A stretch of DNA of 64,000 bases. Source: Clostridia bacterium (GTDB taxonomy: Bacteria; Bacillota; Clostridia; Christensenellales; UBA1242). The notes below the pieces were generated by a model. It searched no databases and had not been told where the DNA came from. It worked only from the letters and a program-made list of their open reading frames with translations. The stretch spans positions 5,919 to 69,918 of the forward strand of contig CAAGAD010000009.1 of NCBI GenBank assembly GCA_900767715.1, given 5' to 3'. The translations under genes were made by a program, and so were the position numbers. Shown piece by piece: positions 28,512 through 62,787 of this stretch. Position 1 is the first letter of the stretch; each line of letters opens with the position of its first letter.

Positions 28512-28529
28512 GGATAGATAAAAAGTTGT

Positions 28530-49392: not shown

Positions 49393-49520
49393 TTGCGTGA
49401 AATTACTTTTTTGTTTGCTCTTTGAGCAATCGACCGAAAGGTCGGCAGGGCAGAGTGCCCTGATACAGTGCTAAACGCACTGCGCACCGCCGAAGCGTTG
49501 CAAGGCAGAGACAAGGCAAC

Positions 49521-49546
49521 AAAAAAGTAGCGAGTGTAACGCTACT
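49521..49546 (-). terminator. Minus-strand terminator hairpin inside the left repeat (copy of the tRNA-Ile terminator)
   Basis: On the - strand: AGTAGCG-ttacact-CGCTACT followed by TTTTTT. Confidence 0.6.
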
Positions 49547-49550
49547 TATT

Positions 49551-49595
49551 TGGTTGGAATGAATGGACTTGAACCATCGACCTCTGCCTTATCAG
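49551..49595 (-). pseudogene. tRNA-Ile 3' fragment (anticodon loop to CCA), att-like remnant
   Basis: tggttggaatgaatggacttgaaccatcgacctctgccttatcag is identical to 60205-60249 of the intact tRNA-Ile. Identity ends at the 5' edge of the anticodon loop. Confidence 0.9.
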
Positions 49596-49919: not shown

Positions 49920-50978
49920 ATGGATATACATTTTACTAAAGGAGGTATGTCACTGATTTTAAATAATCTATCAGACATAATAAAAAATGAAATTGCTGAT
50001 ATTAAACCTGAGAAAATAATAATCAACACGTCTTCTCAACCTAATAGTAAGCCTCATTTGGGTACACTAACAACATTAATGACTACATTTGCATTAGCAG
50101 AAAAGTTTCAATCTGAATTTAAAATTCCAACAATTGTTAGGTTTGACGAGTTAGAAAATAGTCCATTCGAAATAAATGGCCCATATTACATCTCGTTAGG
50201 AGATTACAAACTTAAAAATGGTAGTAGTATTGCTGACAATAATATGAAAACATATATTGATATTTTTGAGAAACTAAAAAACATTACAAATATTAATTAT
50301 GAGATTAGGACATATAAAGAGTTTCAGAAAATTAATGTTATTAGAGAGAATTTAATAACAATACTTAATAATCCCAACAAATTTGACAGGTACCTTAATC
50401 CATCAAATATAAGCACATATGTTAGGACGAAATGCCCTGAATGTAATCTTTCTTATTTCAATCCCAAAGTAAAAAAATATAGTGATCACATTGATTTTGA
50501 AGGTTCTTGTCCAGTGCATGGGAACTATCGTATTAGGCTGTTAAAAGACAATAGTGAATATATAGATATGAATACCCAATTAAGAGATTTATTAAAAGGC
50601 GTACATATAGCAAAGGAAAAAGAGAATCACATTCTCGAAATAATGTGTGATGGATCGGATTGGTCTGGGGAGTGGACTTCCAACGTCCATTACAAAACAA
50701 TGCTTGCGCTTGGATTTAATTCCATTACTACTAGATTTTTCACCCCAACTATTGTTGATGAAAGTGGAGGGAAATTTTCAAAAAGTGTTTATCTAAAAAA
50801 TGATAGTTATATTGGTGATGAAAAATTGTTTGCTGACTATAAGTTGTTCTATGATAAATACAAGGATGAGGGGTGGTTAAAGATATTTAATGAAGTAAAG
50901 AAATGGGTTAGTGAGCCCATGCGATTTTTCAGGAGTTATTCATGGGAATACATTAAATATATTTTAGAAAAGGAGTAA
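49920..50978 (+). CDS. Class I aminoacyl-tRNA-synthetase-like catalytic-domain protein (no anticodon-binding domain)
   Basis: HIGH-like SSQPNSKPHLGTLTTL near the N-terminus, KMSKS-like GGKFSKS near residue 285, and a Cys/His cluster CPECN...CPVHG. 352 aa. AAGGAGG RBS. Confidence 0.5.
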   Translation: MDIHFTKGGMSLILNNLSDIIKNEIADIKPEKIIINTSSQPNSKPHLGTLTTLMTTFALAEKFQSEFKIPTIVRFDELENSPFEINGPYYISLGDYKLKNGSSIADNNMKTYIDIFEKLKNITNINYEIRTYKEFQKINVIRENLITILNNPNKFDRYLNPSNISTYVRTKCPECNLSYFNPKVKKYSDHIDFEGSCPVHGNYRIRLLKDNSEYIDMNTQLRDLLKGVHIAKEKENHILEIMCDGSDWSGEWTSNVHYKTMLALGFNSITTRFFTPTIVDESGGKFSKSVYLKNDSYIGDEKLFADYKLFYDKYKDEGWLKIFNEVKKWVSEPMRFFRSYSWEYIKYILEKE

Positions 50979-50982
50979 AAAT

Positions 50983-51399
50983 ATGAGATGTTATATAGCT
51001 GGTCCACTATTCACGCAAGGAGATAGATGGTATTTGGAAAAAATAGATGAAATTTTAAAACGATATGGTATAAGTACATATTTGCCACATCGGGATGCTG
51101 GATTATGTCCATCAAATACAAATTCGACAAATTATTATTTTACTACAGATAAAGAGAATGTCTATGACTGCGATTTTATGGTTACAGTTCTTCATGGGAC
51201 TGATATTGATTCAGGTACAGCATGGGAAATTGGATGTGCTTATGCTTTAAATAAACCAATATTTTCTGTTGCCGAGGATATACGTATAGCTGAAAGAGTT
51301 GAAAATATTAATTTAATGATAAGTAATTCAACAAAAGTACATTACAACTTACAAGAACTTGAGAAATCAATAAAGGAATTTGTTAATAATGCAAGGTAA
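50983..51399 (+). CDS. Nucleoside 2-deoxyribosyltransferase-family protein (NDT/Rcl/BlsM-like N-glycosidase fold)
   Basis: MRCYIAGPLFTQGDRWY...GTDIDSGTAWEIGCAYALNKPIF, the family's N-terminal AGPLF strand and DSGT.WE(I/L)G catalytic-Glu block. Confidence 0.7.
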   Translation: MRCYIAGPLFTQGDRWYLEKIDEILKRYGISTYLPHRDAGLCPSNTNSTNYYFTTDKENVYDCDFMVTVLHGTDIDSGTAWEIGCAYALNKPIFSVAEDIRIAERVENINLMISNSTKVHYNLQELEKSIKEFVNNAR

Positions 51400-52036
51400 A
51401 TTGATAGCAATAGAAGGATTAAGTTGTTCTGGAAAATCTACAATTATGAACATTTTGAAGAACAAATTAAAAAACAATGAAAACAAATATATCTTTTGTG
51501 GTGGATTTGACTTGGATGAGCGTTCTAGTTCATTAACCAAATTGTGTAATCAAATGGCTCAACAAGCAACATTTCTAAAAATTAATTATATTGCAGAGTT
51601 TCACCTTCTAATTGCGGAAATGATGAATGAAGTATTTGAGAGAATAATTCCTGCAATAAACGCTGGGAAGGTTGTATTTTATAACAATTACATTAGTTCT
51701 GTTATTGCATTTGAAAAAGGAATATATTATTATGATAAGAAATTTAAAACTTATATTGACCAAACTATTGTTAATCTTAATAAACTCCACAAATTACCAA
51801 TTCCGGATATTATGATCTTTGTAAATGCATCAATCAGTACAACTGTAAAAAGACTTGAACTTAGAGACGACTATAAAGACAAAGAAGTAAACTTAATACA
51901 AAACAATATTTATGAAGAATATTTAAAAGTATTACCATCTGATACGATTATCATTGATAATGAAACAACTTTTGAGAATTTAAATTTAAATATAGAAAAA
52001 TTATTAGATAATTTGAAGGAGAAAAACATTTTATGA
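51389..52036 (+). CDS. Thymidylate kinase-like P-loop nucleotide kinase 1
   Basis: MQGKLIAIEGLSCSGKST P-loop in dTMP-kinase context. ~215 aa. Overlaps the preceding gene by 11 nt. Confidence 0.6.
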   Translation: MQGKLIAIEGLSCSGKSTIMNILKNKLKNNENKYIFCGGFDLDERSSSLTKLCNQMAQQATFLKINYIAEFHLLIAEMMNEVFERIIPAINAGKVVFYNNYISSVIAFEKGIYYYDKKFKTYIDQTIVNLNKLHKLPIPDIMIFVNASISTTVKRLELRDDYKDKEVNLIQNNIYEEYLKVLPSDTIIIDNETTFENLNLNIEKLLDNLKEKNIL

Positions 52037-52644
52037 AAAATTATTTTGTAGTTTTTGAAGGCCCAGATGGAGTTGGAAAATCAACACTTATAAAAGCGCT
52101 TGCAGAAAATTTAGCAGACCAACACCTGTCAGTAGAAATTGTAAATAAAGGAGTTGATTTTATTGATAATGCAATAGTAGAATTGAAAAAACCAAGTAAC
52201 TCTTTGTATAATATTAATGCACATTTTTTACTAGCAGCATCTAATAGTATATTGACATACAATGAAAAAAATAATTCTGCTTCAAATAAAATATATTTGA
52301 TAGACAGATATATCTATACAACAATTGCATACAATTGTGCATTAGGATTTGATTATAGAACCGCACAATTAATAGCAAAATTAGTGCCTGCACCTGATCT
52401 TGTTTTTTTATGTTGTTTAGATACAAGTGCTATGATTGAAAGAAAAAAGGAAATTGAAAGTATTGAGGTTGGCTTTAAAGAAATTAATCGGGAAAATTAT
52501 ATTGAGTATCAAAATAAAGTGAAGCAATATTATAATAAATTATTCACTTCAAATGATAAATTTGTAAAAGTCAACACTGATAACTTAAATACTGCTGTGA
52601 CATATACAAAAAAATACATTTTAGAACTTATAAAGGAGAAATAA
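52033..52644 (+). CDS. Thymidylate kinase-like P-loop nucleotide kinase 2
   Basis: FVVFEGPDGVGKSTLI P-loop and DRYIYTTIAY (the DRY..S..AY motif of Tmk). ATGA overlap with the preceding gene. Confidence 0.65.
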   Translation: MKNYFVVFEGPDGVGKSTLIKALAENLADQHLSVEIVNKGVDFIDNAIVELKKPSNSLYNINAHFLLAASNSILTYNEKNNSASNKIYLIDRYIYTTIAYNCALGFDYRTAQLIAKLVPAPDLVFLCCLDTSAMIERKKEIESIEVGFKEINRENYIEYQNKVKQYYNKLFTSNDKFVKVNTDNLNTAVTYTKKYILELIKEK

Positions 52645-53345
52645 TGTATACACAAAAAGATTATGAAAAATTAATAGAGGCAGTGTCTCAAATTAAGTTG
52701 CTTGAAGGTAAAAATAATGCAATGGGTAATTATAAAAATGCAGCATTAATATGCATTGATGCTGTTTTGTCTATCAATAGAAAGTATTATAGTTTTGTTG
52801 TCCCTAGAATAAAAATAATTCAAGAAAATTATCATGAAATTAATTCTTTAACTAAATTACAAAAATTAATTAAACGGTCTTCCATCGAAGAATTTTCAAA
52901 AATATGGAATTATAATCATCCACAAAGAATTAAAACATTAAGTAACTTGGTTGATAGATTAATAGCTTGTGCCGGCATTAAGGAATATGATAGTACAAAG
53001 ACAGAACTTGAGAAATTGCAAATGTGGGCAAAGACTGTTAACGCATATGACTATGACACATTTAATGTGCAAGGCATAGGAATTGCAACTTATCAGTATA
53101 TTAGAATGATGTTGGGAGCAAAAACTGTAAAACCAGATGTTTACATAAAGAGATATATTAATTCAGTCTTGAATAGAAAATTAAATGAAAAGGATTTAAT
53201 AGATGTTTTTGAAAGGGCTTGCCATAGCAATAATATAGATGTTTCCCAAGCAGACCACTCTCTTTGGAAACAAAATGCTAGAGATGTTGATGTACAATAT
53301 TTATGGGAAAATGACAAATGGATTTCAAGAGAGGTAGTAAAGTGA
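52644..53345 (+). CDS. Helical protein with a helix-hairpin-helix, DNA-glycosylase-like segment
   Basis: FNVQGIGIATYQYIRMMLGAKTVKPDVYIKRYI resembles the HhH-GPD pattern LPGVG.KTA..IL...G....VD.H..R. TAATG overlap with the preceding gene. Confidence 0.35.
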   Translation: MYTQKDYEKLIEAVSQIKLLEGKNNAMGNYKNAALICIDAVLSINRKYYSFVVPRIKIIQENYHEINSLTKLQKLIKRSSIEEFSKIWNYNHPQRIKTLSNLVDRLIACAGIKEYDSTKTELEKLQMWAKTVNAYDYDTFNVQGIGIATYQYIRMMLGAKTVKPDVYIKRYINSVLNRKLNEKDLIDVFERACHSNNIDVSQADHSLWKQNARDVDVQYLWENDKWISREVVK

Positions 53346-54439
53346 AAACTGTTAGCATAATCAAAGAAAAGTTGAAAAATGAAAAGCGTGTCATAATGAC
53401 ACCTGATCAAGTTCACGAATTAGTATCGTTGGGATATTCTGTTTTGGTTGAGTATGGGGCTGGAATTGGGTGCAACTATACTGATAACGAATATGAAAAA
53501 AACGGAGCAAAATTAGTAGATACTGATGAGGCATGGCTATCCGCCGACATTATATTGAAGTATAAAGCACCAACTGTTGAAGAATATAAATATTTTAGAA
53601 AGGGATTAAACATATGTGCCCTATTTCATGCTGAAAGTAACAAAAACTTAGTAGAAGAAATGTGCAAAAGCAGACTTAATGCATACACCTTTGAATTTTT
53701 AAAAACCGAGGATGATATTTTCCCTATGGCAAAATCAGGAGGTGAAATTGCTGGAAAATTTTCGATCATTATGGGGACTTACTTATTACAAAAACAATTT
53801 GGAGGTAGTGGTAAGTTTTTGGTACAGACTCGTGGTGTGAAACCATGTACTGTTGGGGTTATTGGGTATGGAAATGTTGGTGCGGCTGCTATAAAACTGG
53901 CAAGCGATTTAGGTGCTAGAGTAATTTGTTTTGGAAGAAATGTCGCTAAAATGAATAAACTATCAATTTCTTATAACAACAATGTATCGTTTGTGGAAAG
54001 TACTCAAGATAATTTTAAAAAATATTTATCGATGATAGATTTGTTAATAGGTTCTATTTTAATATCTACATATGACACCCCACCTTTGATAGAAAAAGAT
54101 GTAATTAGTTTAATGAAAAAAGGTTCAGTAGTAATTGATGTTACTTGTGGATATGGTAAAGGTTATTTACCCTTTATTGACAGGTATACAACTTTAGAAA
54201 ATCCTTACTATGAAAAGGATGGTTTAATATTTTCAAAAATAGATAATTTACCTTCGGCATATCCAGTTACTACGGTTGAAGCATACACAAGTAATGGCTT
54301 TCCTTATATAATAGACATTTTGAATTATATTTCCGGAGATAAAACAAAAGAAAAATTTGTGAGAACTTCAAAAATAATAGAAGATGGTAAGATAATTCAT
54401 CCAGTAATTAAACAACACATGGAGTTTTATGGAAATTGA
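53342..54439 (+). CDS. Alanine dehydrogenase / PNT-family NAD(P) oxidoreductase (AlaDH/CEOS-like)
   Basis: Collinear with AlaDH: EKRVIMTP, LKYKAP, LFHAES, GGEIAGKFS and the Rossmann motif VGVIGYGNVGAAAIKLASDLGARV. The AlaDH DQGG Asp block reads CGYGKG. GTG at 53342 (AGAGG RBS, GTGA overlap) is preferred over the ATG at 53318. Confidence 0.7.
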   Translation: MKTVSIIKEKLKNEKRVIMTPDQVHELVSLGYSVLVEYGAGIGCNYTDNEYEKNGAKLVDTDEAWLSADIILKYKAPTVEEYKYFRKGLNICALFHAESNKNLVEEMCKSRLNAYTFEFLKTEDDIFPMAKSGGEIAGKFSIIMGTYLLQKQFGGSGKFLVQTRGVKPCTVGVIGYGNVGAAAIKLASDLGARVICFGRNVAKMNKLSISYNNNVSFVESTQDNFKKYLSMIDLLIGSILISTYDTPPLIEKDVISLMKKGSVVIDVTCGYGKGYLPFIDRYTTLENPYYEKDGLIFSKIDNLPSAYPVTTVEAYTSNGFPYIIDILNYISGDKTKEKFVRTSKIIEDGKIIHPVIKQHMEFYGN

Positions 54440-55139
54440 TTACAATGTTCGTGCAACCCTAGAAGAAAATTTAGATAGTGATATTCCATGTATATTGGAA
54501 TTATTTAAAGGAAAAGACATTTCACAATTAAGTATCGCAGAAATTCCTTCAAACAAAGACAGAAATATAGCTTTGTGTAAATATTTTAATAAAGTTGAAA
54601 TGTATGATATCAATCAGCAAGTTATTCAAAATCTGAAAAATACTTATAAAATTAACAATTTAAAATTCGATATTTGTGATTTTACAAATGTTTCCAAAAT
54701 AAATGTTGATTGCTTAATAAGTATGCGACAGTCTTTTCAAATGTTTGATCTAGGGATGCTGAGAAATTTCTTTAAAAGTCTAAAGCTAAATAATAATATT
54801 AAATATTTGGTGTTTGATCTGTATAATTTTAACTCAAAAGATATGTCATATGCACCTTCTTATTTAACTAAATCCTGTGTGGTAAAATCGCGAGTTGATA
54901 ATGTAATCTATTTAAGGGAAACTAGTTTTAAAGTAATAGAAAATAAAGTACATTTGTGTCATAGATACTTTCAAGACGGTAATTTATGTTTTAAACACAA
55001 CATTTATATGTTTAATCATAATGTAAAAGATATAATCCATTTATTGAAAGAATATGGTTTTAAATTCACTATATATAATAAAAATTTCGATAAACAATAT
55101 CAAAGTGAATATCAAATATTTTTTGTAGAGGTGCTATGA
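54429..55139 (+). CDS. Class I methyltransferase-fold-like protein with a degenerate glycine loop
   Basis: Strand pattern LSIAEIPSN / VEMYDIN / KFDICDF / VDCLISM fits motifs I-IV of the Rossmann-like MTase fold, but the GxGxG loop is absent. Confidence 0.35.
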   Translation: MEIDYNVRATLEENLDSDIPCILELFKGKDISQLSIAEIPSNKDRNIALCKYFNKVEMYDINQQVIQNLKNTYKINNLKFDICDFTNVSKINVDCLISMRQSFQMFDLGMLRNFFKSLKLNNNIKYLVFDLYNFNSKDMSYAPSYLTKSCVVKSRVDNVIYLRETSFKVIENKVHLCHRYFQDGNLCFKHNIYMFNHNVKDIIHLLKEYGFKFTIYNKNFDKQYQSEYQIFFVEVL

Positions 55140-56134
55140 TAATTTCCAAAGAAAATGTTATGTATATAAGATTATACAAACAAGGATTAATTAAGAAGTT
55201 TTCTTCTTTTGACGAGTTGATTAATCGCTTAGAGATTCAAGCGCAAAGCGAAAAAGATATGTTGTTCAATGTAAATGCTAGATTATGTTTCCCTGTAACT
55301 TTGAATGAAATATATCTGAAGTCCATACGTAATTGGTATGTCCGTAACACTCTATTTTTGGTAAATAAAAATAAATATTCGCAAATTGTTTATGTGAACA
55401 ATGTGATAGACAACTGGTTTAACAAAAAGTATCTAAAAGATGATCCAAGCTTAAATGATTTTAACAATATTAAAAAGATATGCTCAAGACATGAACAAAT
55501 TAGTGTAGATAAACTTTTATCCTTTGAGATTAACAATAGTTTTGTTAAAAACTGGGGTGGAGTTTTTATTGAATTAACAAAACAAGGACTTGTTTATAGC
55601 AAACAAAGAAATTTCATTGTTTTTAATCATAGAAAAATAAATAGAAATTTCTCAATGTTAAAGATTATGGAAGATTATTTTAAAATATATGGTCCCGCAA
55701 CATTGAATGATTTTAAACATTGGCTAGGAGTTCCTTATAAGGAAACAAATAAAATTTTCAATAAATTGCCAAAAGATTATGTAATAACGGACGATAAATT
55801 AATCGTCCACAGGAAAGATTTAGACTTACTTAATAATAAAATGAATATTCCAACTATTGTTCTAGGTAAATTTGATAATATTTGTTTAAGTTATGAAGAT
55901 AAGACTTGGTTGATAAATAACCAGTTTAAAAGCAAAGTGTGGGGACCTGCAGGAATAGTTGAGGCCATAATTATACTAGATGGAAATATCATAGCTACGT
56001 GGAGATATAAAAAAGATTTTGTTAGCATTAGGATGGTCGAAAGTTTAAGTGTTGCACAAAAAAAGGCAATCTATGATAAATTTATAGAATTGTTCGGTAA
56101 GGATGTTAAATTGGAGTATGTTTATGAATATTGA
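55136..56134 (+). CDS. Winged-helix HTH_42 (YcaQ/AlkZ) family DNA-glycosylase-like protein, QxQ type
   Basis: Family blocks IRLYKQGL, LEIQAQSEKDMLFNVNARL (QAQ at the catalytic-motif position), RNTLFLV, YFKIYGPATLNDFKHWLG, LGKFDNICLSYEDK, IILDGNIIATWRY. Confidence 0.7.
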   Translation: MIISKENVMYIRLYKQGLIKKFSSFDELINRLEIQAQSEKDMLFNVNARLCFPVTLNEIYLKSIRNWYVRNTLFLVNKNKYSQIVYVNNVIDNWFNKKYLKDDPSLNDFNNIKKICSRHEQISVDKLLSFEINNSFVKNWGGVFIELTKQGLVYSKQRNFIVFNHRKINRNFSMLKIMEDYFKIYGPATLNDFKHWLGVPYKETNKIFNKLPKDYVITDDKLIVHRKDLDLLNNKMNIPTIVLGKFDNICLSYEDKTWLINNQFKSKVWGPAGIVEAIIILDGNIIATWRYKKDFVSIRMVESLSVAQKKAIYDKFIELFGKDVKLEYVYEY

Positions 56135-56822
56135 TTTATTTAATTTAAAAAGAGAACTTGATTATTTTTGTAATTATTATGGATCTGACTTTGTATGTGG
56201 ATTTGGTACTGAAGAAATTCTTGACTGTTTCAACAAATATTTTGTAAAATCTAAGTGGTTGGATTTAGGTGGTGGTTCAACTTCTCTTTTGTGGTGGTTG
56301 GCTCAGAAGTATAATAATCCTATTGATATTGTAGATATTTCTGAAGAGTCATTTTTCTTAACGAAAATATTGAAATTAAGCAACTATGATGGAGGTTGCT
56401 ACAAATATGTGAGAAGTAATTATTATGATAAGGACTTAAGACATTGCAAAACTAAGTTTATAAAACGAGATTTACTTTCAAATATCTCTTTAAAACATAA
56501 ATACAAAAATATTAGTCAAATCGGACTATTGGGTCTATGTAGTAATGAAAAACAGTTTGAAAAAATATTGGCACAAATTTGCGGTTTATTAAAAGAAAAT
56601 GGAATTTTGATATCGGCCAACTGGATTTTTAATGAACAATATTCAATTAAAAAAAATATTGACAACACTTTTCTCAACCAACAATTATTACAAAAGTTTG
56701 TTAAAGAAAACAATCTAACATTGAAGTATTGTAAGTACGTAAATTTTATCAATGATGATAATTATAAAGGAGTTATAATATATGTTATCCAAAGAAAAAA
56801 AGACTTGGCAAAATCTTGTTGA
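56124..56822 (+). CDS. Class I SAM-dependent methyltransferase-fold protein
   Basis: WLDLGGGSTSLL (motif I), IDIVDISEE (motif II), LLKENGILISANW (post-motif). ATG at 56124, 7 nt after a GGAG, overlapping the preceding gene. Confidence 0.6.
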   Translation: MNIDLFNLKRELDYFCNYYGSDFVCGFGTEEILDCFNKYFVKSKWLDLGGGSTSLLWWLAQKYNNPIDIVDISEESFFLTKILKLSNYDGGCYKYVRSNYYDKDLRHCKTKFIKRDLLSNISLKHKYKNISQIGLLGLCSNEKQFEKILAQICGLLKENGILISANWIFNEQYSIKKNIDNTFLNQQLLQKFVKENNLTLKYCKYVNFINDDNYKGVIIYVIQRKKDLAKSC

Positions 56823-57129
56823 CATCTATAATTGTTCTATTGATATAAATGATGAAAATGAAATTGAAAATATAGTAAACAAAATAGTTGAAGATCTAGA
56901 TTTGCATTCGGTAAAGAAAATTAAATACTTGTTTCCAAATCAAGGACTTACTTCTGTTGATATCCTTTCAGAGTCTCATTTAGTATTACACACATGGCCA
57001 GAGTATAAATATGTTAGTATAGATCTGTTCTCTTGTTCTAATAAGTTAAAAATAGATAAATTATATTTTAAAGAACTTTTCAAATCGAATAAATTAATGT
57101 GTAAAACTATAAAACACATTATTAAATAA
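56782..57129 (+). CDS. Pyruvoyl-dependent S-adenosylmethionine decarboxylase-like proenzyme (SpeH/SpeD small class)
   Basis: FPNQGLTSVDILSESHLVLHTWPEYKYVSIDLFSC, the E-S self-cleavage site and HTWPE block of the family. 115 aa. Confidence 0.75.
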   Translation: MLSKEKKTWQNLVDIYNCSIDINDENEIENIVNKIVEDLDLHSVKKIKYLFPNQGLTSVDILSESHLVLHTWPEYKYVSIDLFSCSNKLKIDKLYFKELFKSNKLMCKTIKHIIK

Positions 57130-57183
57130 AGGAAGTACAAAAATGAGAGTCTTGCTTAATGTATAAACGCTAAAGGATGCATT

Positions 57184-58293
57184 ATGAGTGAAAAATATAT
57201 AAAGGAAGAAAGCAAAGATAGAAAAAAAAGACGACACGAAGTTAGTTTTTCTGCTATTCAAGGCAACCAAAGTCAAGACTATTTAGATGGATATTTGAAT
57301 AAACATTCTTCGCAAGGAAGTGTAGATATTGTTGACCAAATGGTAGATAAAATTGACAAGAAAATTTTGAGAGAAAGTCTGTCTAGATTGCAAGGTCAAG
57401 ACAAACTCATATTGTGCCAATATCTTGCTGGAACAAAACAAAATGTTATTGCTGAAAGATTTGGGATTAGTCCTAGTGCAATAAATCAAAGACTAGAAAA
57501 AATCATATATAATTATCGTGCAATACTTTGTAATAATGAAAAATTTACACAGTCATCATTTTGGGATAAATTTCAAAGAGAATCCGAATATTTGTTTAAT
57601 GCTTATCTACAAGAAATAAGACAGAAAGGAATATTGACTATTGACCTTAACGAAGTCAAAAATCTAATAAAAGAAACAAGTTTAGGGACTTTGGGAGATA
57701 TGGGATGTTTTTCTCTTAAAGATGGGAAATTAGTATCGGCTGGCGAAGGTGGTTACATATTGACTAACAATAAAAAATATTATACAAAACTGGTTAATCT
57801 AAGAAATCATCAAATTTCACAAAATCCAGATAATTCATTTAAAGATGTAGGATATAATTATAGGCTTACAAATATTCAAGCATATTTAGCCATAGAAAGT
57901 TTAAATAATATCGATGCTAACTTATCATACAGAAAACATATTTGTAATAAGTTTTATAAAGAGATTAGTTGTATGGATAATTTAAGTAAATTACAATGCA
58001 ATTCAAATTATTTTTCACCTTTGCTACTATTCAAAAACAATAGCTTAGAAATAATAAAAAGCTTATCTAAGAAAAAAGTAATAAACAGTGTTGGTTCTTT
58101 TGGTTTGAGACCAGTAACTGAAAGAATTGCTATTAAGAGATATTTAAAATCTATAAATTATAATCATAGAATTAAAGTCACCAATTGTAAAAACCTGCTA
58201 AATAGATTGCTTGCTATTGCAATCAACAATAATTATAATGATATTAAGGTTAATACAGACATAAGGGAAATTAAAGGAATAATAAATGAATAA
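57184..58293 (+). CDS. Chimeric ORF: sigma-70 region-4-like HTH N-terminal part fused to the C-terminal half of a DegT/DnrJ/EryC1-type aminotransferase
   Basis: N-part LSRLQGQDKLILCQYLAGTKQNVIAERFGISPSAINQRLEKI. C-part GDMGCFSLKDGKLVSAGEGGYILTNN...LRNHQ...GYNYRLTNIQAYLAIESL. The PLP-Lys block is present, but the N-terminal ~170 aa of the aminotransferase fold is missing. Confidence 0.6.
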   Translation: MSEKYIKEESKDRKKRRHEVSFSAIQGNQSQDYLDGYLNKHSSQGSVDIVDQMVDKIDKKILRESLSRLQGQDKLILCQYLAGTKQNVIAERFGISPSAINQRLEKIIYNYRAILCNNEKFTQSSFWDKFQRESEYLFNAYLQEIRQKGILTIDLNEVKNLIKETSLGTLGDMGCFSLKDGKLVSAGEGGYILTNNKKYYTKLVNLRNHQISQNPDNSFKDVGYNYRLTNIQAYLAIESLNNIDANLSYRKHICNKFYKEISCMDNLSKLQCNSNYFSPLLLFKNNSLEIIKSLSKKKVINSVGSFGLRPVTERIAIKRYLKSINYNHRIKVTNCKNLLNRLLAIAINNNYNDIKVNTDIREIKGIINE

Positions 58294-58900
58294 AGATTTA
58301 CGCGAACAATCTTTTATGGTAATAGATTTTGAAACTGTTACTCCTAAAGGGGTTCCACCAGAACCGATTCAACTGGGGTTGGTACAAATAGATAATTTAC
58401 AAGTTAGTCAAACAAAACAAAAATCTTGGTTTATAAAACCGCCAAGTTTTGCACCTCTAACGGAATTTGATACCCAACAAACAGGCATTACGGAAAAAGA
58501 TTTACAAAATGCTAAGAATTCGAATGAAATTTTCAATATACTTGAAGAAGTTTGTGGTAGAAATGACTATGTTTTTATAGCTCAAAATGCAAATTATGAA
58601 TTAAGTATATGCAAAAGATTTTATGAGGGAAGAGAAAAACTTGGCAAAATTAAATTTATTGACACAATAAAATTGGCAAAACTCGCTTTTCCAAATGAAA
58701 AAAGTTACAAGTTAGATAATTTGGCGAAATTGTTTTCCATTGAAATACCTAAAACTAGACATACTGCTTTAACAGATTGTATATTAACTGGCGAAATTTT
58801 TATTAAACTGGTAGAAAAACTAGGAATAAAAGATAAAGAAACACTACTAGATAAAGCAAGTATAAATTATGATAAATTTACTCAAATGTCGTTATTTTAA
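58286..58900 (+). CDS. DEDDh 3'-5' exonuclease (DnaQ/epsilon-like)
   Basis: Exo I MVIDFETV, Exo II-like AQNANYELS, Exo III HTALTDC. Confidence 0.7.
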   Translation: MNKDLREQSFMVIDFETVTPKGVPPEPIQLGLVQIDNLQVSQTKQKSWFIKPPSFAPLTEFDTQQTGITEKDLQNAKNSNEIFNILEEVCGRNDYVFIAQNANYELSICKRFYEGREKLGKIKFIDTIKLAKLAFPNEKSYKLDNLAKLFSIEIPKTRHTALTDCILTGEIFIKLVEKLGIKDKETLLDKASINYDKFTQMSLF

Positions 58901-58910
58901 GGAGATACAA

Positions 58911-59462
58911 ATGTTTAAATTATTAGATGAATTAAAAAATTACAAACCATATGACAATAAGGAACAAGAAGATGTAATAAAAATGACATCATTTTTAAAA
59001 AATAATACGAATTGTTATGATAGGTCAAATTTAGAAGGTCATATAACTGCAGGTGCGTTTGTTTGTGATAAGCAAGGAAATATTTTACTTAATCACCACA
59101 AAAAATCCGGAATGTGGTTCCAGTTTGGTGGACACAGTGATGGCGAAGAAGATAGTCTAAATGTTGCGAAAAGAGAAATTATGGAAGAAGCAGGAATTAC
59201 TGATTTTGTATTAGGAACAAATTCTATTTATGATGTTGCAGTTATGAGAATCCCATACAGTGCAAAGAAAAATGAACCTGAACATTGGCACTACGATATT
59301 AACTTTTTGTTTATTGTTGACGATCATGATTATGAAATTTCTAATGAATCTATGGAAATTAAATGGGTTACTATTAACGAAGCATTAGATTTAGTAGACA
59401 AAAATGATTATGGTATGATTAGAATGATAAATAAGTATAAAAATTATTTAAAAATATCATAG
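58911..59462 (+). CDS. Nudix hydrolase
   Basis: Nudix box GGHSDGEEDSLNVAKREIMEEAGI. AAGGAG RBS before the ATG at 58911. Confidence 0.85.
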   Translation: MFKLLDELKNYKPYDNKEQEDVIKMTSFLKNNTNCYDRSNLEGHITAGAFVCDKQGNILLNHHKKSGMWFQFGGHSDGEEDSLNVAKREIMEEAGITDFVLGTNSIYDVAVMRIPYSAKKNEPEHWHYDINFLFIVDDHDYEISNESMEIKWVTINEALDLVDKNDYGMIRMINKYKNYLKIS

Positions 59463-59611
59463 TTTGTTGTGATAAATATTTACGAATATTACATTATTTG
59501 TAATATTTTATTTAACTATGTTTTTCACTAAAATTTAAGCTTTAAAAATATTGTTAGTTAATCAATGCTTTTATTATGTGTGGATGGGAAAATACCATTT
59601 GAGGTAGTGTT

Positions 59612-59680
59612 ATGAACAACAAAGAAATAAAGGAAGAAAGCAAAGATAGAAAAATAAGACGGCACGATTTTGAGATGTAA
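59612..59680 (+). pseudogene. 22-codon remnant duplicating the 5' end of the sigma-like ORF at 57184
   Basis: ataaaggaagaaagcaaagatagaaaaa is shared exactly with 57198-57225. It translates MNNKEIKEESKDRKIRRHDFEM*, versus MSEKYIKEESKDRKKRRHEV... in the full gene. Confidence 0.6.
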
Positions 59681-59684: not shown

Positions 59685-59740
59685 TGACATCAATTTTGAC
59701 TTCAATTGACATCAAATGTATCAGTTTTAGATAGTTTTAG
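59685..59740. promoter_or_regulatory. Right-end motif arrays, direct orientation: three TGAC(A/T)TCAA boxes, then two 10-bp-phased AGTTTTA boxes
   Basis: gtgacatcaa (59685), ttgacttcaa (59696), ttgacatcaaatg (59706-59718). agttttag at 59723 and 59733, the reverse complement of the left-end TAAAACT. Confidence 0.6.
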
Positions 59741-59744
59741 AAAG

Positions 59745-59788
59745 AAAAAAGACCGATAGAAAAATTTTGTTCTTATCGGTCTTTTTTA
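59745..59788 (+). terminator. Rho-independent terminator inside the right island arm
   Basis: aaaaAAGACCGATA-(15 nt)-TATCGGTCTTtttt. Confidence 0.6.
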
Positions 59789-59811
59789 TTGCAAATTTTT
59801 AAGTAAAAAAT

Positions 59812-59979: not shown

Positions 59980-59984
59980 AAATT

Positions 59985-60066
59985 TGGTTGGAATGAATGG
60001 ACTTGCATTAAGCGGAGCGTCAATCTTCGGGCAGGGGTCCCGAATACGAAATCGACCTCTGCATTA
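59985..60066 (-). pseudogene. Second tRNA-Ile 3' fragment, interrupted in the T-arm by a ~44-nt insertion
   Basis: The - strand reads ..ATAATGCAGAGGTCGAT[TTCGTATTCGGGACCCCTGCCCGAAGATTGACGCTCCGCTTAATG]CAAGTCCATTCATTCCAACCA, versus the intact ..GATAAGGCAGAGGTCGATGGTTCAAGTCCATTCATTCCAACCA. Confidence 0.75.
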
Positions 60067-60249
60067 TTTGCTCTTTGAGCAATCGACCGAAAGGTCGGCA
60101 GGGCAGGGTGCCCTGATACAGTGCTAAACGCACTGCGCACCGCTGAAAGCGTTGCAAGGCAGAGACAAGGCAACAAAAAAGTAGCGAGTGAAACGCTACT
60201 TATTTGGTTGGAATGAATGGACTTGAACCATCGACCTCTGCCTTATCAG
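60067..60249. repeat. Right copy of the ~182-nt direct repeat (hairpin-array flank plus 3' part of the intact tRNA-Ile)
   Basis: See 49414-49595. 183 nt here because of a 1-nt insertion. Confidence 0.9.
60175..60200 (-). terminator. Terminator of the tRNA-Ala/tRNA-Ile transcription unit
   Basis: On the - strand, 4 nt after the CCA end: AGTAGCG-tttcact-CGCTACT followed by TTTTTT. Confidence 0.7.
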
Positions 60250-60281
60250 GGCAGCGCTCTAACCAGCTGAGCTACATTCCA
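60205..60281 (-). tRNA. tRNA-Ile (anticodon GAU), CCA encoded
   Basis: Hand-folded. Acceptor TGGAATG/CATTCCA, D-arm GCTC-AGCTGGTTA-GAGC, anticodon arm CTGCC-CTGATAA-GGCAG, T-arm GATGG-TTCAAGT-CCATT, then ACCA. Confidence 0.9.
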
Positions 60282-60325: not shown

Positions 60326-60402
60326 TGGTGGAGAATATCGGAATCGAACCGATGACCTCCTGCTTGCAAGGCAGGCGCTCTAGCCAGCTGAGCTAATCCC
60401 CC
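60326..60402 (-). tRNA. tRNA-Ala (anticodon UGC), CCA encoded
   Basis: GGGGGATTAGCTCAGCTGGCTAGAGCGCCTGCCTTGCAAGCAGGAGGTCATCGGTTCGATTCCGATATTCTCCACCA. The G3:U70 identity pair is present. Confidence 0.92.
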
Positions 60403-60569: not shown

Positions 60570-60983
60570 ATGGAAAACGAAAAGAAAGCAAAAATGACAA
60601 AGGAAGAAATTAAGGAACAAAAACTGTATGTCGAGCGAGAGCAATTTAAAGGGAATGATGGAAACGATTATTGGTCTTATATATTGAAGGGCGTAGTACG
60701 TGGTCGTAATGTTAAAGTTGATTTTGCTCCAAAGGACAAGGGCGGATATGAGCCATTGGACATTTTGTTTGACGTTGCAGAAAAAGCAGAACTTTTGATT
60801 GGCGATGAAGAAATGACAGATAGTGTTACTGGTGTCAAGACAAAATACAAAACTTACACTTTAAGAACTGTCGATGAAGATGGTATCGAATATTTATGTA
60901 GCGTTAAGCCATCGAGAGATAGCGATAAGGCATTGCTAAATATGCTCATAAACACTATGAATAAAGGAAGCAATGCTAAATAG
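60570..60983 (+). CDS. Hypothetical protein
   Basis: 137 aa. GGGAGAG RBS. No motif recognised. Confidence 0.45.
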   Translation: MENEKKAKMTKEEIKEQKLYVEREQFKGNDGNDYWSYILKGVVRGRNVKVDFAPKDKGGYEPLDILFDVAEKAELLIGDEEMTDSVTGVKTKYKTYTLRTVDEDGIEYLCSVKPSRDSDKALLNMLINTMNKGSNAK

Positions 60984-61016
60984 CCTTTTCAACAAATCGA
61001 ATATTAGGAGTAAATT

Positions 61017-61355
61017 ATGGATAACGAAATCAAAAATGTGACCGATTTGACATTTGAAGACGTAAGGAAAATGTTTGACGTGTTGTTATGTAAAGGATAT
61101 TTGGCGCAAGAAATCCTAAACTTCCCCATTTGTGTTGGAAACAACCACACAAGACACTTTATTGAAGTGACAGAACGTGACGAACAATTCAAGGTTCTAT
61201 TGCCGATAGATAAAATAGTATCTATCAGCGAACACGATGGACTTTGTTTTATCGAAACCGGTGTCGATAACAAGGGCGAAAGTTTAGGTATGTTTACAAG
61301 TGAAACATTTGATGATGTAAAAGCAATTTTAGAAAAAAAAAGTAATTGGGAGTAA
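61017..61355 (+). CDS. Hypothetical protein
   Basis: 112 aa. AGGAG RBS. No motif recognised. Confidence 0.45.
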   Translation: MDNEIKNVTDLTFEDVRKMFDVLLCKGYLAQEILNFPICVGNNHTRHFIEVTERDEQFKVLLPIDKIVSISEHDGLCFIETGVDNKGESLGMFTSETFDDVKAILEKKSNWE

Positions 61356-61837
61356 TTATGAATTCGAAAAAAATTTTTAAAAACAAAAAAATAAACAATC
61401 TGTTTACTGGAATTAGCGTATTGCTAATTATTGGATTGTTGGTCGCACTCTGTGTTAACGTAGGAAAATTGAACACTTCTCGTAAGGTAACTAATTTAGA
61501 TTATGCCATAACAAGCATTAGTTCTACAACGGGTAAGGACGTTGATAGCAATCTTCATATTTCAATGAAAAACAAAAAGGCTGTTGACGGATTGTCAATC
61601 AAGCTGAGTGATAATGCACAAATTACATATAAGGTGGCCTTTTATGATGAAGATGGTGCATTCGTATCAATGACAACGGCTCAAAGCGCCGATTTTGATA
61701 ACTCAAATATTCCATCTACAGCAAAAACGTTCCGAGTTGAAATTACGCCAAATCAAGTTGATGGTAAGGACGTGACTATTACTATTTGGAATATTAGTAA
61801 TTACACTGCTCAACTAACAATTGTTTACAACAAATAA
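61346..61837 (+). CDS. N-terminally membrane-anchored protein, paralog of the 61968 product
   Basis: TM LFTGISVLLIIGLLVALCV. The domain block ITYKVAFYDEDGAFVSMT...IPSTAKTFRVEITP parallels ITYGLYFYDENEKFMISQ...IPVNAKYVRIVITP. Confidence 0.55.
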   Translation: MGVIMNSKKIFKNKKINNLFTGISVLLIIGLLVALCVNVGKLNTSRKVTNLDYAITSISSTTGKDVDSNLHISMKNKKAVDGLSIKLSDNAQITYKVAFYDEDGAFVSMTTAQSADFDNSNIPSTAKTFRVEITPNQVDGKDVTITIWNISNYTAQLTIVYNK

Positions 61838-61847
61838 GGCGGTGTGT

Positions 61848-61955
61848 ATGAAAAAGATAATAAAAAACAAAAAAACACGCAGTGTTGTCAAAATAGTGCT
61901 ATTGGTTGTTCATATAGCGTTAACTATTGGTGCATTGTTGGTGGTTTTTAAATAA
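61848..61955 (+). CDS. Possible 35-aa single-TM micropeptide
   Basis: Hand translation gives MKKIIKNKKTRSVVKIVLLVVHIALTIGALLVVFK. GGCGGTG lies upstream. It fills the only gap in an otherwise tightly packed cluster. Too short for the ORF track. Confidence 0.3.
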   Translation: MKKIIKNKKTRSVVKIVLLVVHIALTIGALLVVFK

Positions 61956-61967
61956 GGAGACTACTAA

Positions 61968-62777
61968 ATGAAAAAAATAAAAGGTAAAAATGACAGCGTG
62001 TTTTTATTGCTTGTTGGAGCACTGCTTGTTATTGCAACGATCTGTGGTTTGGTTGCAGTCATAAACAACGATAAATCTAATATGCGTACCGTTCGACCCG
62101 ATTATTTTATCGGTGGTCTAGACTCAAATTCCGGTAAATACGTAGCTACAAAAGGCAGTATTTACACTAAGCATTCGTTCGAATGTCAAGGGTTGAAAAC
62201 AACTTTAAACTTTGATGCGACAATTACTTATGGCTTGTATTTTTATGATGAAAATGAAAAATTTATGATTTCTCAAACATCATTGGAAACTAACGTTAAT
62301 GAAATACCTGTCAATGCTAAGTATGTACGCATTGTAATCACGCCTAAGGAAGATTCTAAAGTGTCCTGGTACGAGAAAAGCAAATATTCGTCTCAGTTGA
62401 AAGTCGAGGTCTTTAAAGAACAAAAATTTGTTCATCAAGACGTTTATGGCGATGATTTGTTTACATATCTAGGTCAAGGATATTTCTCCGCAGATGGTTT
62501 CGTTCAAGATACTACAAGTGAAAAATCCTTCTATTTCTCAAATGACATTGGCTTGACAGATTATAGTCGAATTAAAGTCTATGTGCCAAAAAGCACAACT
62601 AATTTCACAATCGACTTTTATTCTGCGACATCAACTAAGGTTGCATTGGAACCATCATTAATTGAAAGTGATAGCGACTTTGAAATCCGAGTTTATGATT
62701 TGTCAGGAGTGTCGCGCGCTGTTCTTTGCTGGAAAACTGGTTCGACAATGCCTCAAATAAGAGCATTGATTGGTTAG
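61968..62777 (+). CDS. N-terminally membrane-anchored two-domain protein (paralog of the 61346 product)
   Basis: TM VFLLLVGALLVIATICGLVAVI. The first domain is homologous to the 61346 product. AAGGAG RBS. Confidence 0.55.
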   Translation: MKKIKGKNDSVFLLLVGALLVIATICGLVAVINNDKSNMRTVRPDYFIGGLDSNSGKYVATKGSIYTKHSFECQGLKTTLNFDATITYGLYFYDENEKFMISQTSLETNVNEIPVNAKYVRIVITPKEDSKVSWYEKSKYSSQLKVEVFKEQKFVHQDVYGDDLFTYLGQGYFSADGFVQDTTSEKSFYFSNDIGLTDYSRIKVYVPKSTTNFTIDFYSATSTKVALEPSLIESDSDFEIRVYDLSGVSRAVLCWKTGSTMPQIRALIG

Positions 62778-62787
62778 GAGGTAATTT

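Follow-up and report, generated by a model that had tools for sequence, protein, structure and literature searches.

The DNA analysed here, referred to throughout as the window, is a stretch of 64,000 nucleotides from a Clostridia bacterium (assembly GCA_900767715.1, contig CAAGAD010000009.1, positions 5,919 to 69,918 of the forward strand). It contains a low-GC island of 13 co-directional genes, P1 to P13, situated at a tRNA-Ile gene. The first ten of these genes form a cassette that is headed by P1, a free-standing protein resembling class I aminoacyl-tRNA synthetases (aaRSs). A sequence-only reading of the window had described a four-gene head module, made up of an aaRS-like enzyme, a nucleoside 2-deoxyribosyltransferase (NDT) family protein, and two Tmk-like kinases. 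These four plus-strand open reading frames (ORFs), P1 to P4, are found exactly where they had been placed, and their order and their grouping in one operon are real. The interpretation given in that reading is borne out in part. However, the module is not self-contained: P5, a DNA-glycosylase-like protein, belongs to it as well, and the whole is the front of the ten-gene cassette. In evolution, the head module is P1-NDT-kinase-kinase-P5, and this gene order recurs in nine other loci (L005, L006, L008, L009, L010, L095, L096, L102, and L103). The tail comprises an alanine dehydrogenase (AlaDH)-like protein (P6), two methyltransferase-like proteins (P7 and P9), an AlkZ-type glycosylase (P8), and an S-adenosylmethionine decarboxylase (AdoMetDC) family protein (P10). 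Neighboring genes abut or overlap, which is what one operon would show. A strong AGGAGG ribosome-binding site precedes P1. The features are collected in Table 1.

Table 1. Features of the tRNA-Ile island and its borders, in window coordinates
Feature	Position	Strand	Basis or remark
Direct repeat, left copy, 185 bp	49411-49595		Repeat families D1/D3; 96-99% identity to 60064-60249
Tandem TTGACATCA motif, operator-like, upstream of P1	49704-49738	+	Repeat family D7
Cassette, 7.44 kb, upstream region and P1-P10	49803-57241	+	blastn, 96.4% over 7440 bp to L102/L103
P1, stand-alone class I aaRS-like protein, 352 aa	49920-50978	+	Rossmann catalytic domain, CP1-like zinc knuckle, short helical C-terminal part
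P2, NDT family, 138 aa	50983-51399	+	PF05014
P3, divergent Tmk/dNK-family kinase, 218 aa	51380-52036	+	P-loop IEGLSCSGKST
P4, Tmk-family (deoxy)nucleoside monophosphate kinase, 203 aa	52033-52644	+	FEGPDGVGKST, DRYIYTTIAY
P5, HhH-GPD-superfamily DNA-glycosylase-like protein	52644-53345	+	Fold match; no Pfam match
P6, AlaDH-family enzyme	53318-54439	+	PF01262/PF05222
P7, class I methyltransferase-fold protein	54429-55139	+	Orthologs match Methyltransf_25/11
P8, AlkZ-like (HTH_42) DNA glycosylase	55136-56134	+	PF06224 8e-14, partial, residues 180-294
P9, NNMT/PNMT-like small-molecule N-methyltransferase-fold protein	56103-56822	+	Weak PF01234
P10, pyruvoyl-type AdoMetDC-family protein	56782-57129	+	PF02675 8e-23
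P11, sigma/HTH-like N-terminus and C-terminal half of LegC/PseC-type sugar aminotransferase	57184-58293	+	Outside the conserved cassette
P12, DnaQ/PolC-type DEDD 3'-5' exonuclease	58286-58900	+	PF00929 3e-21; NF001688 exonuclease region 4e-27
P13, NUDIX hydrolase	58869-59462	+	PF00293 4e-11
tRNA-like remnant	59982-60063		Repeat D5 and sequence reading
Direct repeat, right copy	60064-60249		Overlaps 3' half of intact tRNA-Ile
tRNA-Ile(GAT), apparent insertion target	60205-60281	-	ARAGORN, Rfam

The PHLG element, the KFSKS element, and the CPEC...CPVH cluster that had been noticed in a P1 of only catalytic-domain length are all present (P45-H46-L-G48, K285-S289, and C172, C175, C197, and H200). 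The signatures H-L-G-T and K-F-S-K-S are variants of the HIGH and KMSKS consensus, and the HIGH-like, KMSKS-like, and C-C-C-H residues show no or almost no variation across 36 homologs. The invariant blocks of the family are N-T-S-x-x-P-N-x-x-P45-H-L-G48, F-D-E-x-E, R-x-x-C172-P-x-C175...C197-x-x-H200, N-T-Q-L-R-D, M-x-D-G-x-D-W-x-G-x-W, and G-x-K285-x-S-K. Sequence searches with P1 gave no match in Pfam (E<=0.01), NCBIfam, or the PDB (phmmer), and at the same Pfam threshold P1 does not fall into the class I LysRS (LysRS-I) family PF01921 by profile. A homolog search returned 44 unnamed proteins with 37-82% identity, spread across phyla, and three of these, all distant, have a weak precomputed match to PF01921. 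An exhaustive search with the P1 profile retrieved 470 representative clusters (333 with E<=1e-10) from Bacillota, Actinobacteria, the candidate phyla radiation (CPR), DPANN archaea, Photorhabdus, and Streptomyces phages. Against the PDB, the profile found only sub-threshold matches, to LysRS-I 1irx (E 0.5) and to ValRS. In these below-significance alignments, PHLG coincides with HVGN (HIGH) of 1irx and GGKFSKS with KMSKS of ValRS 1gax.

P1 was identifiable only through structure prediction. The AlphaFold (AF2) model of P1 has a mean confidence (pLDDT) of 91 and a predicted template modelling score (pTM) of 0.92. Its best Foldseek match in the PDB is the LysRS-I structure 1irx (E 9e-10, about 297 columns of the catalytic part), followed by GluRS, BshC, MetRS, CysRS, and GlnRS, and also LeuRS. 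There are 121 PDB matches with E<=1e-3; among the matches listed, 49 of 50 are class I aaRSs, and the sixth is BshC. Against a viral structure library, P1 matched aaRSs of giant viruses and phages, including a 375-aa 'lysine-tRNA ligase' of Halogranum tailed virus 1. P1 also corresponds to PHROG 35625 ('tRNA synthetase', 3e-29), which equals gp28 of the Streptomyces phages Picard and Mojorita. An anticodon-binding domain is missing from P1 (352 aa versus 523 aa in 1irx), and only a short helical C-terminus follows the KMSKS-like element. The proposal of the sequence-only reading that P1 is an aaRS-like protein without an anticodon domain is thus confirmed at the level of the predicted Rossmann fold, and the question it had raised of the aaRS clade is answered by LysRS-I as the nearest structure, with GluRS next. 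As modelled, the kinship to LysRS-I is structural only, and P1 is a catalytic-domain-only class I aaRS paralog that belongs to a conserved family of its own, for which Pfam has no model. A non-tRNA or unusual acceptor, as had been suggested for a free-standing aaRS domain, is plausible because P1 lacks an anticodon domain and forms its own family. Within this family, P0157 carries a GDSL/SGNH hydrolase domain at its N-terminus, and several members of 860-980 aa (among them P0186, P0187, and P0195) are enlarged by long extensions that match nothing in Pfam.

The assignment of P2 to the NDT family, together with its catalytic-Glu block, is borne out by the profile and by solved structures. P2 matches PF05014 (Nuc_deoxyrib_tr) at 9e-20, with 71.4 bits versus a curated cut-off of 28.8, and has Tyr4, Asp76, Glu82, and Asn110 (INLMI). 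Glu82 lies in DSGTAWEIG (D-x-G-T-A-x-E-x-G), which is aligned to the Glu block of the NDTs 7m5h (6e-12), 6evs, and 2a0k. The INLMI segment is common to P2 and 6evs, a suggestive hint only that P2 may act as a transferase rather than as a hydrolase.

P3 and P4 had been taken for two different Tmk-like kinases, and both match PF02223 (Thymidylate_kin; cut-off 27), P3 at 8e-16 and 58.7 bits and P4 at 2e-20 and 73.9 bits. P3 also matches PF01712 (dNK, 1e-8), and its P-loop, IEG(L/I)SxSGK(S/T)T, is read as dNK-like. At its DRY position P3 has NNY; all five orthologs have (D/N/T)-N-Y, and the arginine is gone. P4 keeps a canonical P-loop (FEGxDGxGKS) and DRY, both conserved. When the two kinases are aligned to each other, only the P-loop matches (E 0.022). 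The nearest PDB entries are distant Tmk proteins, 5uiv for P3 (8.6e-8) and 2plr for P4 (only 1.9e-7). No host tmk gene lies within the window, and the kinases were judged by equivalog cut-offs, motifs, and a homolog census. P3 reaches 63.7 bits and P4 79.5 bits against the dTMP-kinase equivalog TIGR00041, the first under and the second just under its cut-off of 83.25. Among 5.8 billion clusters, P4 has about 11 close homologs, after which identity falls to <=30%, and the first named dTMP kinase appears at 27%. By these measures, the two kinases, both of the Tmk family, differ greatly from each other, and neither appears to be a recent copy of tmk. Ordinary duplicates of the host gene, which the sequence-only reading had named as the outcome that would speak against it, are not indicated, given the sub-threshold equivalog scores, the few relatives of P4, and the lost DRY arginine of P3.

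P5 was recognized by its fold. Its profile matched no PDB sequence, and its AF2 model (pLDDT 93.5) matches MagIII 1pu7 in Foldseek with TM scores of 0.60/0.64 and probability 1.0, followed by Ogg, MutY, and EndoIII. The residues G144-I-G146 and, about 20 residues further on, Asp165 are invariant; they are read as the helix-hairpin-helix (HhH) hairpin and the putative catalytic Asp (compare EndoIII D138). P5 is present in all five of the loci that have an NDT and kinases, and five homologs (P0125-P0128 and P0136) are natural NDT-P5 fusions, one of which adjoins a Tmk gene. More distant P5 homologs are stand-alone chromosomal genes, and L100 and L101 contain a genuine stand-alone chromosomal P5. 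The P5 of the module may have been recruited from such a housekeeping gene. In L100, the P5 ortholog (4516-5211, 82% DNA identity) is located between tsaD/ygjV and a methyltransferase gene, and at 12624-15053 the same locus has the dnaX-ybaB-recR order of the window, with an ABC transporter after recR instead of the island. The P5 of L099, which is 94% identical, was also considered as an independent housekeeping gene; this was rejected, as the identity starts inside P4 and ends in P6. What remains of the module in L099 is a decayed fragment: the 3' end of P4, then P5, and the beginning of P6.

P6 opens the tail. It aligns end to end with AlaDH 2eez (4.5e-57), and the VDQGG stretch with its Asp reads TCGYGKG. 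With 227.8 bits against the AlaDH equivalog TIGR00518, P6 stays far under the cut-off of 391.85; these scores place it in the AlaDH/PNT family and outside the AlaDH equivalog. The window copy of P7 is Pfam-negative, and a profile of its orthologs matches small-molecule methyltransferases in the PDB. In the lineage of the window, L001, and L030, the GxGxG motif for S-adenosylmethionine (SAM) is degenerate (EIPSNKDRN/EIPCNKDRN versus EIPCGSGR elsewhere), and P7 of this lineage may be inactive or may bind another ligand. P9, used as a profile, matches NNMT structures over the full length (E 4e-4). P8 has Q35-A-Q37, a catalytic motif of the AlkZ-like (AZL) type, and the QxQ is invariant in 25 orthologs. 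Domain and motif place P8 in the AZL subfamily, with glycosylase activity predicted. The (Q/H)-aliphatic-Q motif defines this subfamily, which is enriched in gene clusters for DNA alkylators and has a self-resistance role there (PMC9040887). P10 has its processing site at E64/S65, conserves ESH..HTWPE, and scores 75.1 against TIGR03330, marginally under the cut-off of 75.65. Paralogs in the AdoMetDC family decarboxylate other substrates, such as arginine.

To place the cassette among its relatives, 87 loci with P1 relatives were compiled and their ORFs were searched with the island proteins. The gene that most often accompanies P1 is ASCH-like: it occurs in 73 of 87 loci, and in 29 of these it lies <=100 nt away from P1. 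AlaDH-like genes accompany P1 in 63 loci, P9 (NNMT-like) genes in 62, AdoMetDC genes in 57, and AlkZ genes in 29, the latter in Bacillota only. NDT, both kinases, and P5 are found together with P1 in five. The pairing of an NDT with two kinases, on which the sequence-only reading had built, is conserved, but it is a rare state of eight loci in one P1 clade, and the usual partners of P1 are ASCH, AdoMetDC, AlaDH-like, and NNMT-like methyltransferase genes instead. Unbiased clustering of the neighbors found no conserved transporter or exporter in any clade. In Bacillota clusters of the ASCH type it revealed a Tmk-like kinase (14 loci) and a further methyltransferase; the presence of the kinase argues for a nucleotide-level step even in these clusters. 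A pyruvate-kinase-like gene stands beside AlaDH in L003, L035, and L081/L082. Natural fusions join P1 to ASCH (P0233) and to AdoMetDC (P0148), and the latter hints that P10 has a dedicated substrate.

The ASCH assignment is based on several proteins. Gp29 of phage Picard matches PF04266 at 1e-10 and the C-terminus of P0233 at 1.5e-8. The short partners in CPR and DPANN genomes reach 22-26 bits versus a cut-off of 21.2. Partners of about 160 aa are borderline for PF04266 (22 and 16.6 bits), and as a profile match 5guq/5gus, which we take to be the Zymomonas ASCH protein, at 1.7e-11; an hhalign comparison of them with Picard gp29 alone was not significant. The ASCH partners carry a GxKxxExR signature. 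A divergent NDT was considered for the neighbor of about 160 aa and rejected, since it is unlike P2, has GxKxxExR, and matches 5guq/5gus and, weakly, PF04266. Characterised members of the ASCH fold strip N4-acyl groups from cytidine. A preprint describes ASCH proteins as erasers of N4-acetylcytidine (ac4C) and calls TmcAL, which uses acetate to form ac4C in tRNA, an aminoacyl-tRNA synthetase (bioRxiv 10.64898/2026.02.27.708502). We found no published description of the gene set of the cassette or of aaRS-like/ASCH systems in a literature survey of incomplete coverage.

ASCH is absent exactly in the loci with NDT, kinases, and P5, with the exception of L010. This locus (2234-11405, in the Patescibacteria-labelled metagenome-assembled genome (MAG) WARW01000007) has two P1 paralogs in the order P1a-NDT-kinase-kinase-P5-AlaDH...P9-P1b-ASCH-AdoMetDC-AlkZ, and resembles a transitional form between the two architectures, ASCH-type and NDT-type. 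When 73 P1 proteins are placed in a neighbor-joining tree, the eight with an NDT link group in a clade that contains no others and sits within the ASCH/AlkZ-linked Bacillota sequences. NDT plus kinases is a rare derived state, and the ASCH form is ancestral and far commoner. A complete operon, NDT-P1-kinase-kinase-P5-NUDIX-AlaDH-MT-MT-AlkZ-AdoMetDC (MT, methyltransferase), is found in L095/L096 beside a serine recombinase. The core cluster is compact and self-contained in cultured actinomycetes and Photorhabdus. The seven-gene set of P1, ASCH, AlaDH-like, two methyltransferase-like, and AdoMetDC genes, with or without AlkZ, is present in cultured strains, among them Saccharopolyspora spinosa NRRL 18395, Lihuaxuella thermophila DSM 46701, and Photorhabdus kayaii DSM 15194. 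Laceyella putida CCUG 54950 is a further natural carrier of the core cluster. At the other extreme are minimal loci in CPR, DPANN, and other MAGs (L058, L068, L071, L078, L080, L085, and L086), which have P1, an A2-type ASCH gene of about 140-167 aa, and then a canonical PF04266 gene of about 120 aa, in this order. AlaDH, methyltransferase, and AdoMetDC genes are missing from these loci.

The cassette is a mosaic. By blastn, window positions 53340-57359 (P6-P10) are 96-97% identical at the DNA level to L001, L029, L032, and L033, which are MAGs labelled Clostridia, Bacillota, and Christensenella. L001-type loci have integrase-ASCH-P1, with a P1 that is about 43% identical, in place of P1-NDT-P3-P4-P5. 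Because the identity to these loci starts exactly at the P5/P6 boundary, the head is seen as an exchangeable unit that has been functionally swapped for ASCH and P1. The L102/L103 copies of the cassette lie in an unrelated setting, in DNA of 30-34% GC flanked by ParAB, Bro-N, and SSB genes, and a nucleoside-diphosphate kinase (NDK) gene is located just upstream of the cassette in L102. In L001, the cassette stands beside integrase and AAA_15/AAA_21 genes, and in L095 beside serine recombinase and DpnII restriction-modification genes. In phage Picard, the P1-ASCH pair adjoins an integrase. Phage collections are nearly devoid of the P1 system; they yielded one IMG/VR locus and the phages Picard and Mojorita (P1 and ASCH only). 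The cassette is a horizontally mobile operon among gut bacteria. Upstream of the NDT-type cluster in L005 (1910-5972) there are radical-SAM/SPASM, HMUDK_hel, and KilA-N genes. HMUDK_hel is presumably, from its Pfam name, the helical domain of 5-hydroxymethyldeoxyuridine DNA kinase, and the content suggests a neighboring thymidine-hypermodification or phage-derived region.

The chromosomal background of the window has about 43% GC and includes ribosomal-protein operons, secY-adk-map, rpoA, addAB, and dnaX-ybaB-recR. Right after recR the GC content drops to 24-33%, up to about 59.9 kb. Direct repeats flank the island. The last 45 nt or so of the left repeat (49551-49595) are a copy of the 3' half of tRNA-Ile, and a terminator hairpin at 49525-49547 in this repeat is also found downstream of tRNA-Ile. 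At 185 bp, the repeat is unusually long, as it extends 141 nt past the tRNA-Ile 3' end and includes the hairpin. An RNA gene in this 141-nt segment was considered and rejected, since the Rfam matches were tRNAs only. A third copy of the 24-nt tRNA-Ile 3' end occupies 59982-60005, with a degenerate stretch after it, and a tRNA-Ala (60326-60402) is next to tRNA-Ile(GAT). No integrase is found among the ORFs inside the island. The long repeat, the extra tRNA-end fragment, and the missing integrase suggest repeated or decayed integration, or insertion by homologous recombination.

A second tandem copy of TTGACATCA (D7) lies at 59696-59730, near the right end of the island, and window positions 59695-59789 are 78% identical (blastn) to positions 7195-7287 of L102, about 500 nt upstream of the cassette there. 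The TTGACATCA motif may represent an operator or the junction of a circular form. The first 58 nt or so of P11 are duplicated (86%) at 59610-59667, with no ORF after them (repeat D4). P11 is probably a rearrangement remnant, and the duplicated fragments resemble scars at the right end. P11 shows weak similarity to P5 (E about 1e-4). P12-type exonucleases accompany P1 in none of the 87 loci, and P12 is island cargo that is not conserved with the cassette. A NUDIX gene is placed between P5 and AlaDH in L005, L008, and L095.

Two further regions of the window were noted. A second low-GC stretch (25761-34700, 31-33% GC) adjoins a tRNA-Ser (26972-27059) and contains an HNH endonuclease (25761-26579, minus strand), a DUF4041 and T5orf172/MUG113 protein (28530-29660), a DUF11 surface protein, a sugar transferase, and an O-antigen-ligase-like protein. 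This stretch has the appearance of a further island, whose cargo may serve defence and the cell surface. Past the tRNAs, at 60570-63345, there are small plus-strand ORFs of 137, 112, 163, 269, and 185 aa, at about 34% GC and Pfam-negative; those of 163, 269, and 185 aa have hydrophobic N-terminal stretches.

The system is classified here as a candidate nucleobase or nucleotide modification pathway around an aaRS paralog, and P1 belongs to no described family. Our preferred reading, held tentatively and with a little less than even confidence, is that the operon makes a non-canonical base or (deoxy)nucleotide decorated with an acyl or aminoalkyl side chain, which is fed towards the deoxynucleoside triphosphate (dNTP) pool and DNA. 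P10, P6 (with a pyruvate- or alanine-type substrate), and P9/P7 would make or tailor a carboxylate or amine side-chain precursor, a role supported by the P1-AdoMetDC fusion and by the pyruvate-kinase-like gene beside AlaDH. P1 would adenylate a carboxylate, either an amino acid or a custom acid, and join it to a non-tRNA acceptor, most likely an amine on the base or nucleotide. We infer a non-tRNA nucleophile from the missing anticodon domain, the ASCH partner, and the analogy with TmcAL, which is also the model for the proposed ligase chemistry, with GluQRS, MshC, and BshC as further analogies. P2 would move the base onto 2'-deoxyribose, P3 and then P4 would phosphorylate it stepwise, and NDK would complete the cascade. 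Two DNA glycosylases, a NUDIX hydrolase, and a proofreading-type exonuclease point to an interaction with DNA; P5, P8, NUDIX, and the DnaQ-type exonuclease would keep the base in check or recycle it, both within DNA and among the free nucleotides. All catalytic roles in this scheme are taken from family membership, and any individual step is held with much less confidence than the general picture. In a more specific version, which we consider unlikely, P1 and its kin acylate a nucleobase amine with an amino acid or an acid derived from SAM and pyruvate, and ASCH is the reader or eraser; here, a new amino-acid-bearing DNA base would be made via NDT, two kinases, and NDK, and excised or recycled by the glycosylases.

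Several points weigh against this nucleotide-modification pathway. The SAM-binding motif of P7 is lost in the window lineage, the NDK gene is adjacent in one context only, and P3, without its DRY arginine, may not be a nucleotide kinase. Every catalytic role derives from family membership. About 79 of the 87 P1 loci are without NDT and paired kinases, so a dNTP route is not the general function. The system also differs from known DNA-hypermodification pathways in that it is nearly absent from phage collections. That one operon should install a base and also encode two glycosylases makes sense only if a further role, such as quality control, recycling, or immunity, is assumed. Glycosylases of the AZL type are best known for self-resistance against small-molecule DNA alkylators (PMC9040887).

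This last point leads to the main rival, which is doubtful in our view, though a serious contender: the operon may be a small gene cluster for a DNA-reactive metabolite or antimetabolite, such as an aminoacyl or aminopropyl nucleoside or a polyamine-like alkylator. It lies near the aminoacyl-nucleotide 'Trojan horse' precedent named in the sequence-only reading. P1, P6, P7, P9, and P10 would build the compound, NDT and the kinases would build its nucleoside part or salvage damaged bases, and the glycosylases, NUDIX, and exonuclease would provide self-resistance. The AZL motif of P8, of the self-resistance type in DNA-alkylator clusters, speaks for this, as does the resemblance of P5 to 3-methyladenine, 8-oxoG, and adenine glycosylases. 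P9 is NNMT-like, the orthologs of P7 are similar to small-molecule N-methyltransferases, a pyruvate-kinase-like neighbor of AlaDH suggests pyruvate or alanine chemistry on small molecules, and the compact core in cultured actinomycetes and Photorhabdus is self-contained. In addition, aaRS-like enzymes occur in aminoacyl-nucleoside antibiotic pathways (ascamycin) and NDT-like hydrolases in the blasticidin and mildiomycin pathways. However, no clade has a conserved exporter, regulator, or scaffold enzyme, such as a polyketide synthase (PKS), non-ribosomal peptide synthetase (NRPS), or terpene synthase, and AlkZ is missing from the actinomycete, Photorhabdus, and minimal versions. Moreover, the steadiest partner of P1 is ASCH, a nucleobase- and nucleic-acid-binding fold, even in the two- to three-gene loci of CPR and DPANN, which are unlikely antibiotic producers.

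An improbable alternative is a conflict or immunity system of mobile elements, in which part of the nucleotide pool is converted, upon phage infection or constitutively, into a modified dNTP that poisons or marks replicating foreign DNA. Host DNA would be shielded or told apart by the glycosylases, NUDIX, and exonuclease. Islands and mobile elements are indeed carriers of the system (the tRNA-Ile island, L001, L095, and L102), and the P1-ASCH pair of Picard, next to the integrase, occupies a typical position of prophage cargo. Nucleotide kinases accompany some nucleotide-modifying defence enzymes, and P3 and P4 have weak matches to the PADLOC kinase models VakA and PDC-M51B. Against this, P1, P2, and P5-P9 had no match in PADLOC-DB 2.0, a sensor or effector typical of defence systems is lacking, and many actinomycetes have the core on the chromosome, where it is conserved vertically. 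A catalogued anti-phage defence system was rejected, as PADLOC-DB 2.0 gave no system.

P1 may also act on RNA as GluQRS or TmcAL do, modifying for example a tRNA base or one that is already hypermodified; the operon would then supply the acyl or amino-acid donor, and NDT, kinases, and glycosylases would be unrelated cargo, co-transcribed by chance. The CP1-like zinc knuckle and the class I aaRS core are kept in P1, and ASCH, which acts on acylated cytidine in tRNA, is its near-universal partner and is also fused to it. Minimal P1 and ASCH loci in the reduced genomes of CPR and DPANN suggest a housekeeping RNA function. However, the clade of the window has no ASCH, and the P1 proteins of its exclusive subclade have evolved together with NDT, kinases, and P5; the genes overlap within one operon. 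The 2'-deoxyribose-specific NDT, the Tmk-family kinases, and the two DNA glycosylases point to deoxynucleotides and DNA, and away from RNA. RNA modification is plausible for the ancestral P1 and ASCH pair and a poor fit to the DNA-directed enzymes of the window clade, and as an account of the cassette it is quite improbable. That P1 is a decayed aaRS fragment among chance neighbors, with P3 and P4 as ordinary duplicated dTMP kinases, is hardly credible: the kinases do belong to the Tmk family and the right end of the island is visibly decayed (chimeric P11 and duplicated fragments), but P1 is full length, with a confident model and catalytic motifs that do not vary among phyla at 37-82% identity, P3 and P4 have nothing but the P-loop in common, fall under the dTMP-kinase cut-off, and have very few relatives, the order is kept in nine other loci, the cassette is 96% identical in two contexts, and fusions tie P1 to ASCH and AdoMetDC and P5 to NDT.

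If the preferred pathway is correct, P1 would represent a new branch of aaRS paralogs that numbers at least 470 sequence clusters and stands on a par with GluQRS, MshC/BshC, and TmcAL. It would also be part of a new route to modified nucleotides via NDT base exchange, two bespoke kinases, and an HhH glycosylase partner; in the more specific version, which we consider unlikely, an amino-acid-bearing hypermodified DNA base would be spread by mobile elements among human-gut Bacillota. Such a route would bear on DNA-modification biology, on the enzymatic synthesis of nucleoside analogues, and on conflicts between phages, hosts, and mobile elements. An AlkZ-type glycosylase in a mobile operon of the human gut would flag a possible DNA-reactive product, which can be tested by resistance-guided logic. 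Even without the product, the conserved seven-gene set is a well-defined target in cultured strains.

Among known systems, GluQRS (YadB) is a GluRS paralog that glutamylates queuosine in tRNA-Asp. Like GluQRS, P1 has a class I catalytic domain with a zinc insertion and HIGH/KMSKS-type motifs and no anticodon domain. Unlike GluQRS, its nearest fold is LysRS-I rather than GluRS, it has no Pfam aaRS match, and its neighbors are ASCH, AdoMetDC, AlaDH, and methyltransferase genes, or NDT, kinases, and a glycosylase. TmcAL, which N4-acetylates cytidine in tRNA-Met with acetate, proceeds via an acyl-adenylate and then acylates a nucleobase amine. By description, the two-part logic of the P1-ASCH pair and fusion is like that of TmcAL and ASCH-type ac4C erasers such as YqfB. 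The acyl donor of the P1 system differs, in that it is probably an amino acid or a custom acid from the AdoMetDC, AlaDH, and methyltransferase genes, and the cassette of the window has NDT, kinases, and P5 in place of ASCH. MshC and BshC are aaRS-fold ligases that join cysteine to a small-molecule amine. They share with P1 an aaRS-type fold for a non-tRNA acceptor, and BshC 4wbd is the sixth PDB fold match of P1; the likeness is in the fold only (11% identity), and P1 has other partners and no thiol-cofactor context.

P2 is of the same family as the NDTs of lactobacilli, Bacillus, and trypanosomes (7m5h, 6evs, and 2a0k) and has an aligned Glu block. In contrast to these NDTs, it is coupled to kinases in an operon, and its relatives are fused to an HhH glycosylase-like domain, an architecture that is not known to us from the literature. 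AZL self-resistance glycosylases have been described from the azinomycin B, hedamycin, and trioxacarcin clusters (PMC9040887). P8 resembles them in having an HTH_42 domain and QxQ inside a biosynthetic-looking operon. It differs in that its hosts are Bacillota of the gut and not Streptomyces, that PKS and NRPS genes are lacking, and that the Pfam match covers residues 180-294 only. Pre-replicative hypermodification in phages includes the dCMP hydroxymethylase and gp1 dNMP kinase of T4 and the thymidine hypermodification pathways. A recent example of phage DNA base hypermodification is available (PMC13326640). In the proposed scheme, the cassette is similar to these pathways in having a dedicated dNMP kinase that raises a modified nucleotide to the diphosphate, pool-sanitising hydrolases, an amino-acid-derived side chain with decarboxylation, and a location on mobile DNA. 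Unlike them, it has no thymidylate-synthase-like, HMUDK, or aGPT-Pplase enzymes, with HMUDK_hel nearby only in L005, and instead combines NDT base exchange, aaRS-like ligation, and two DNA glycosylases.

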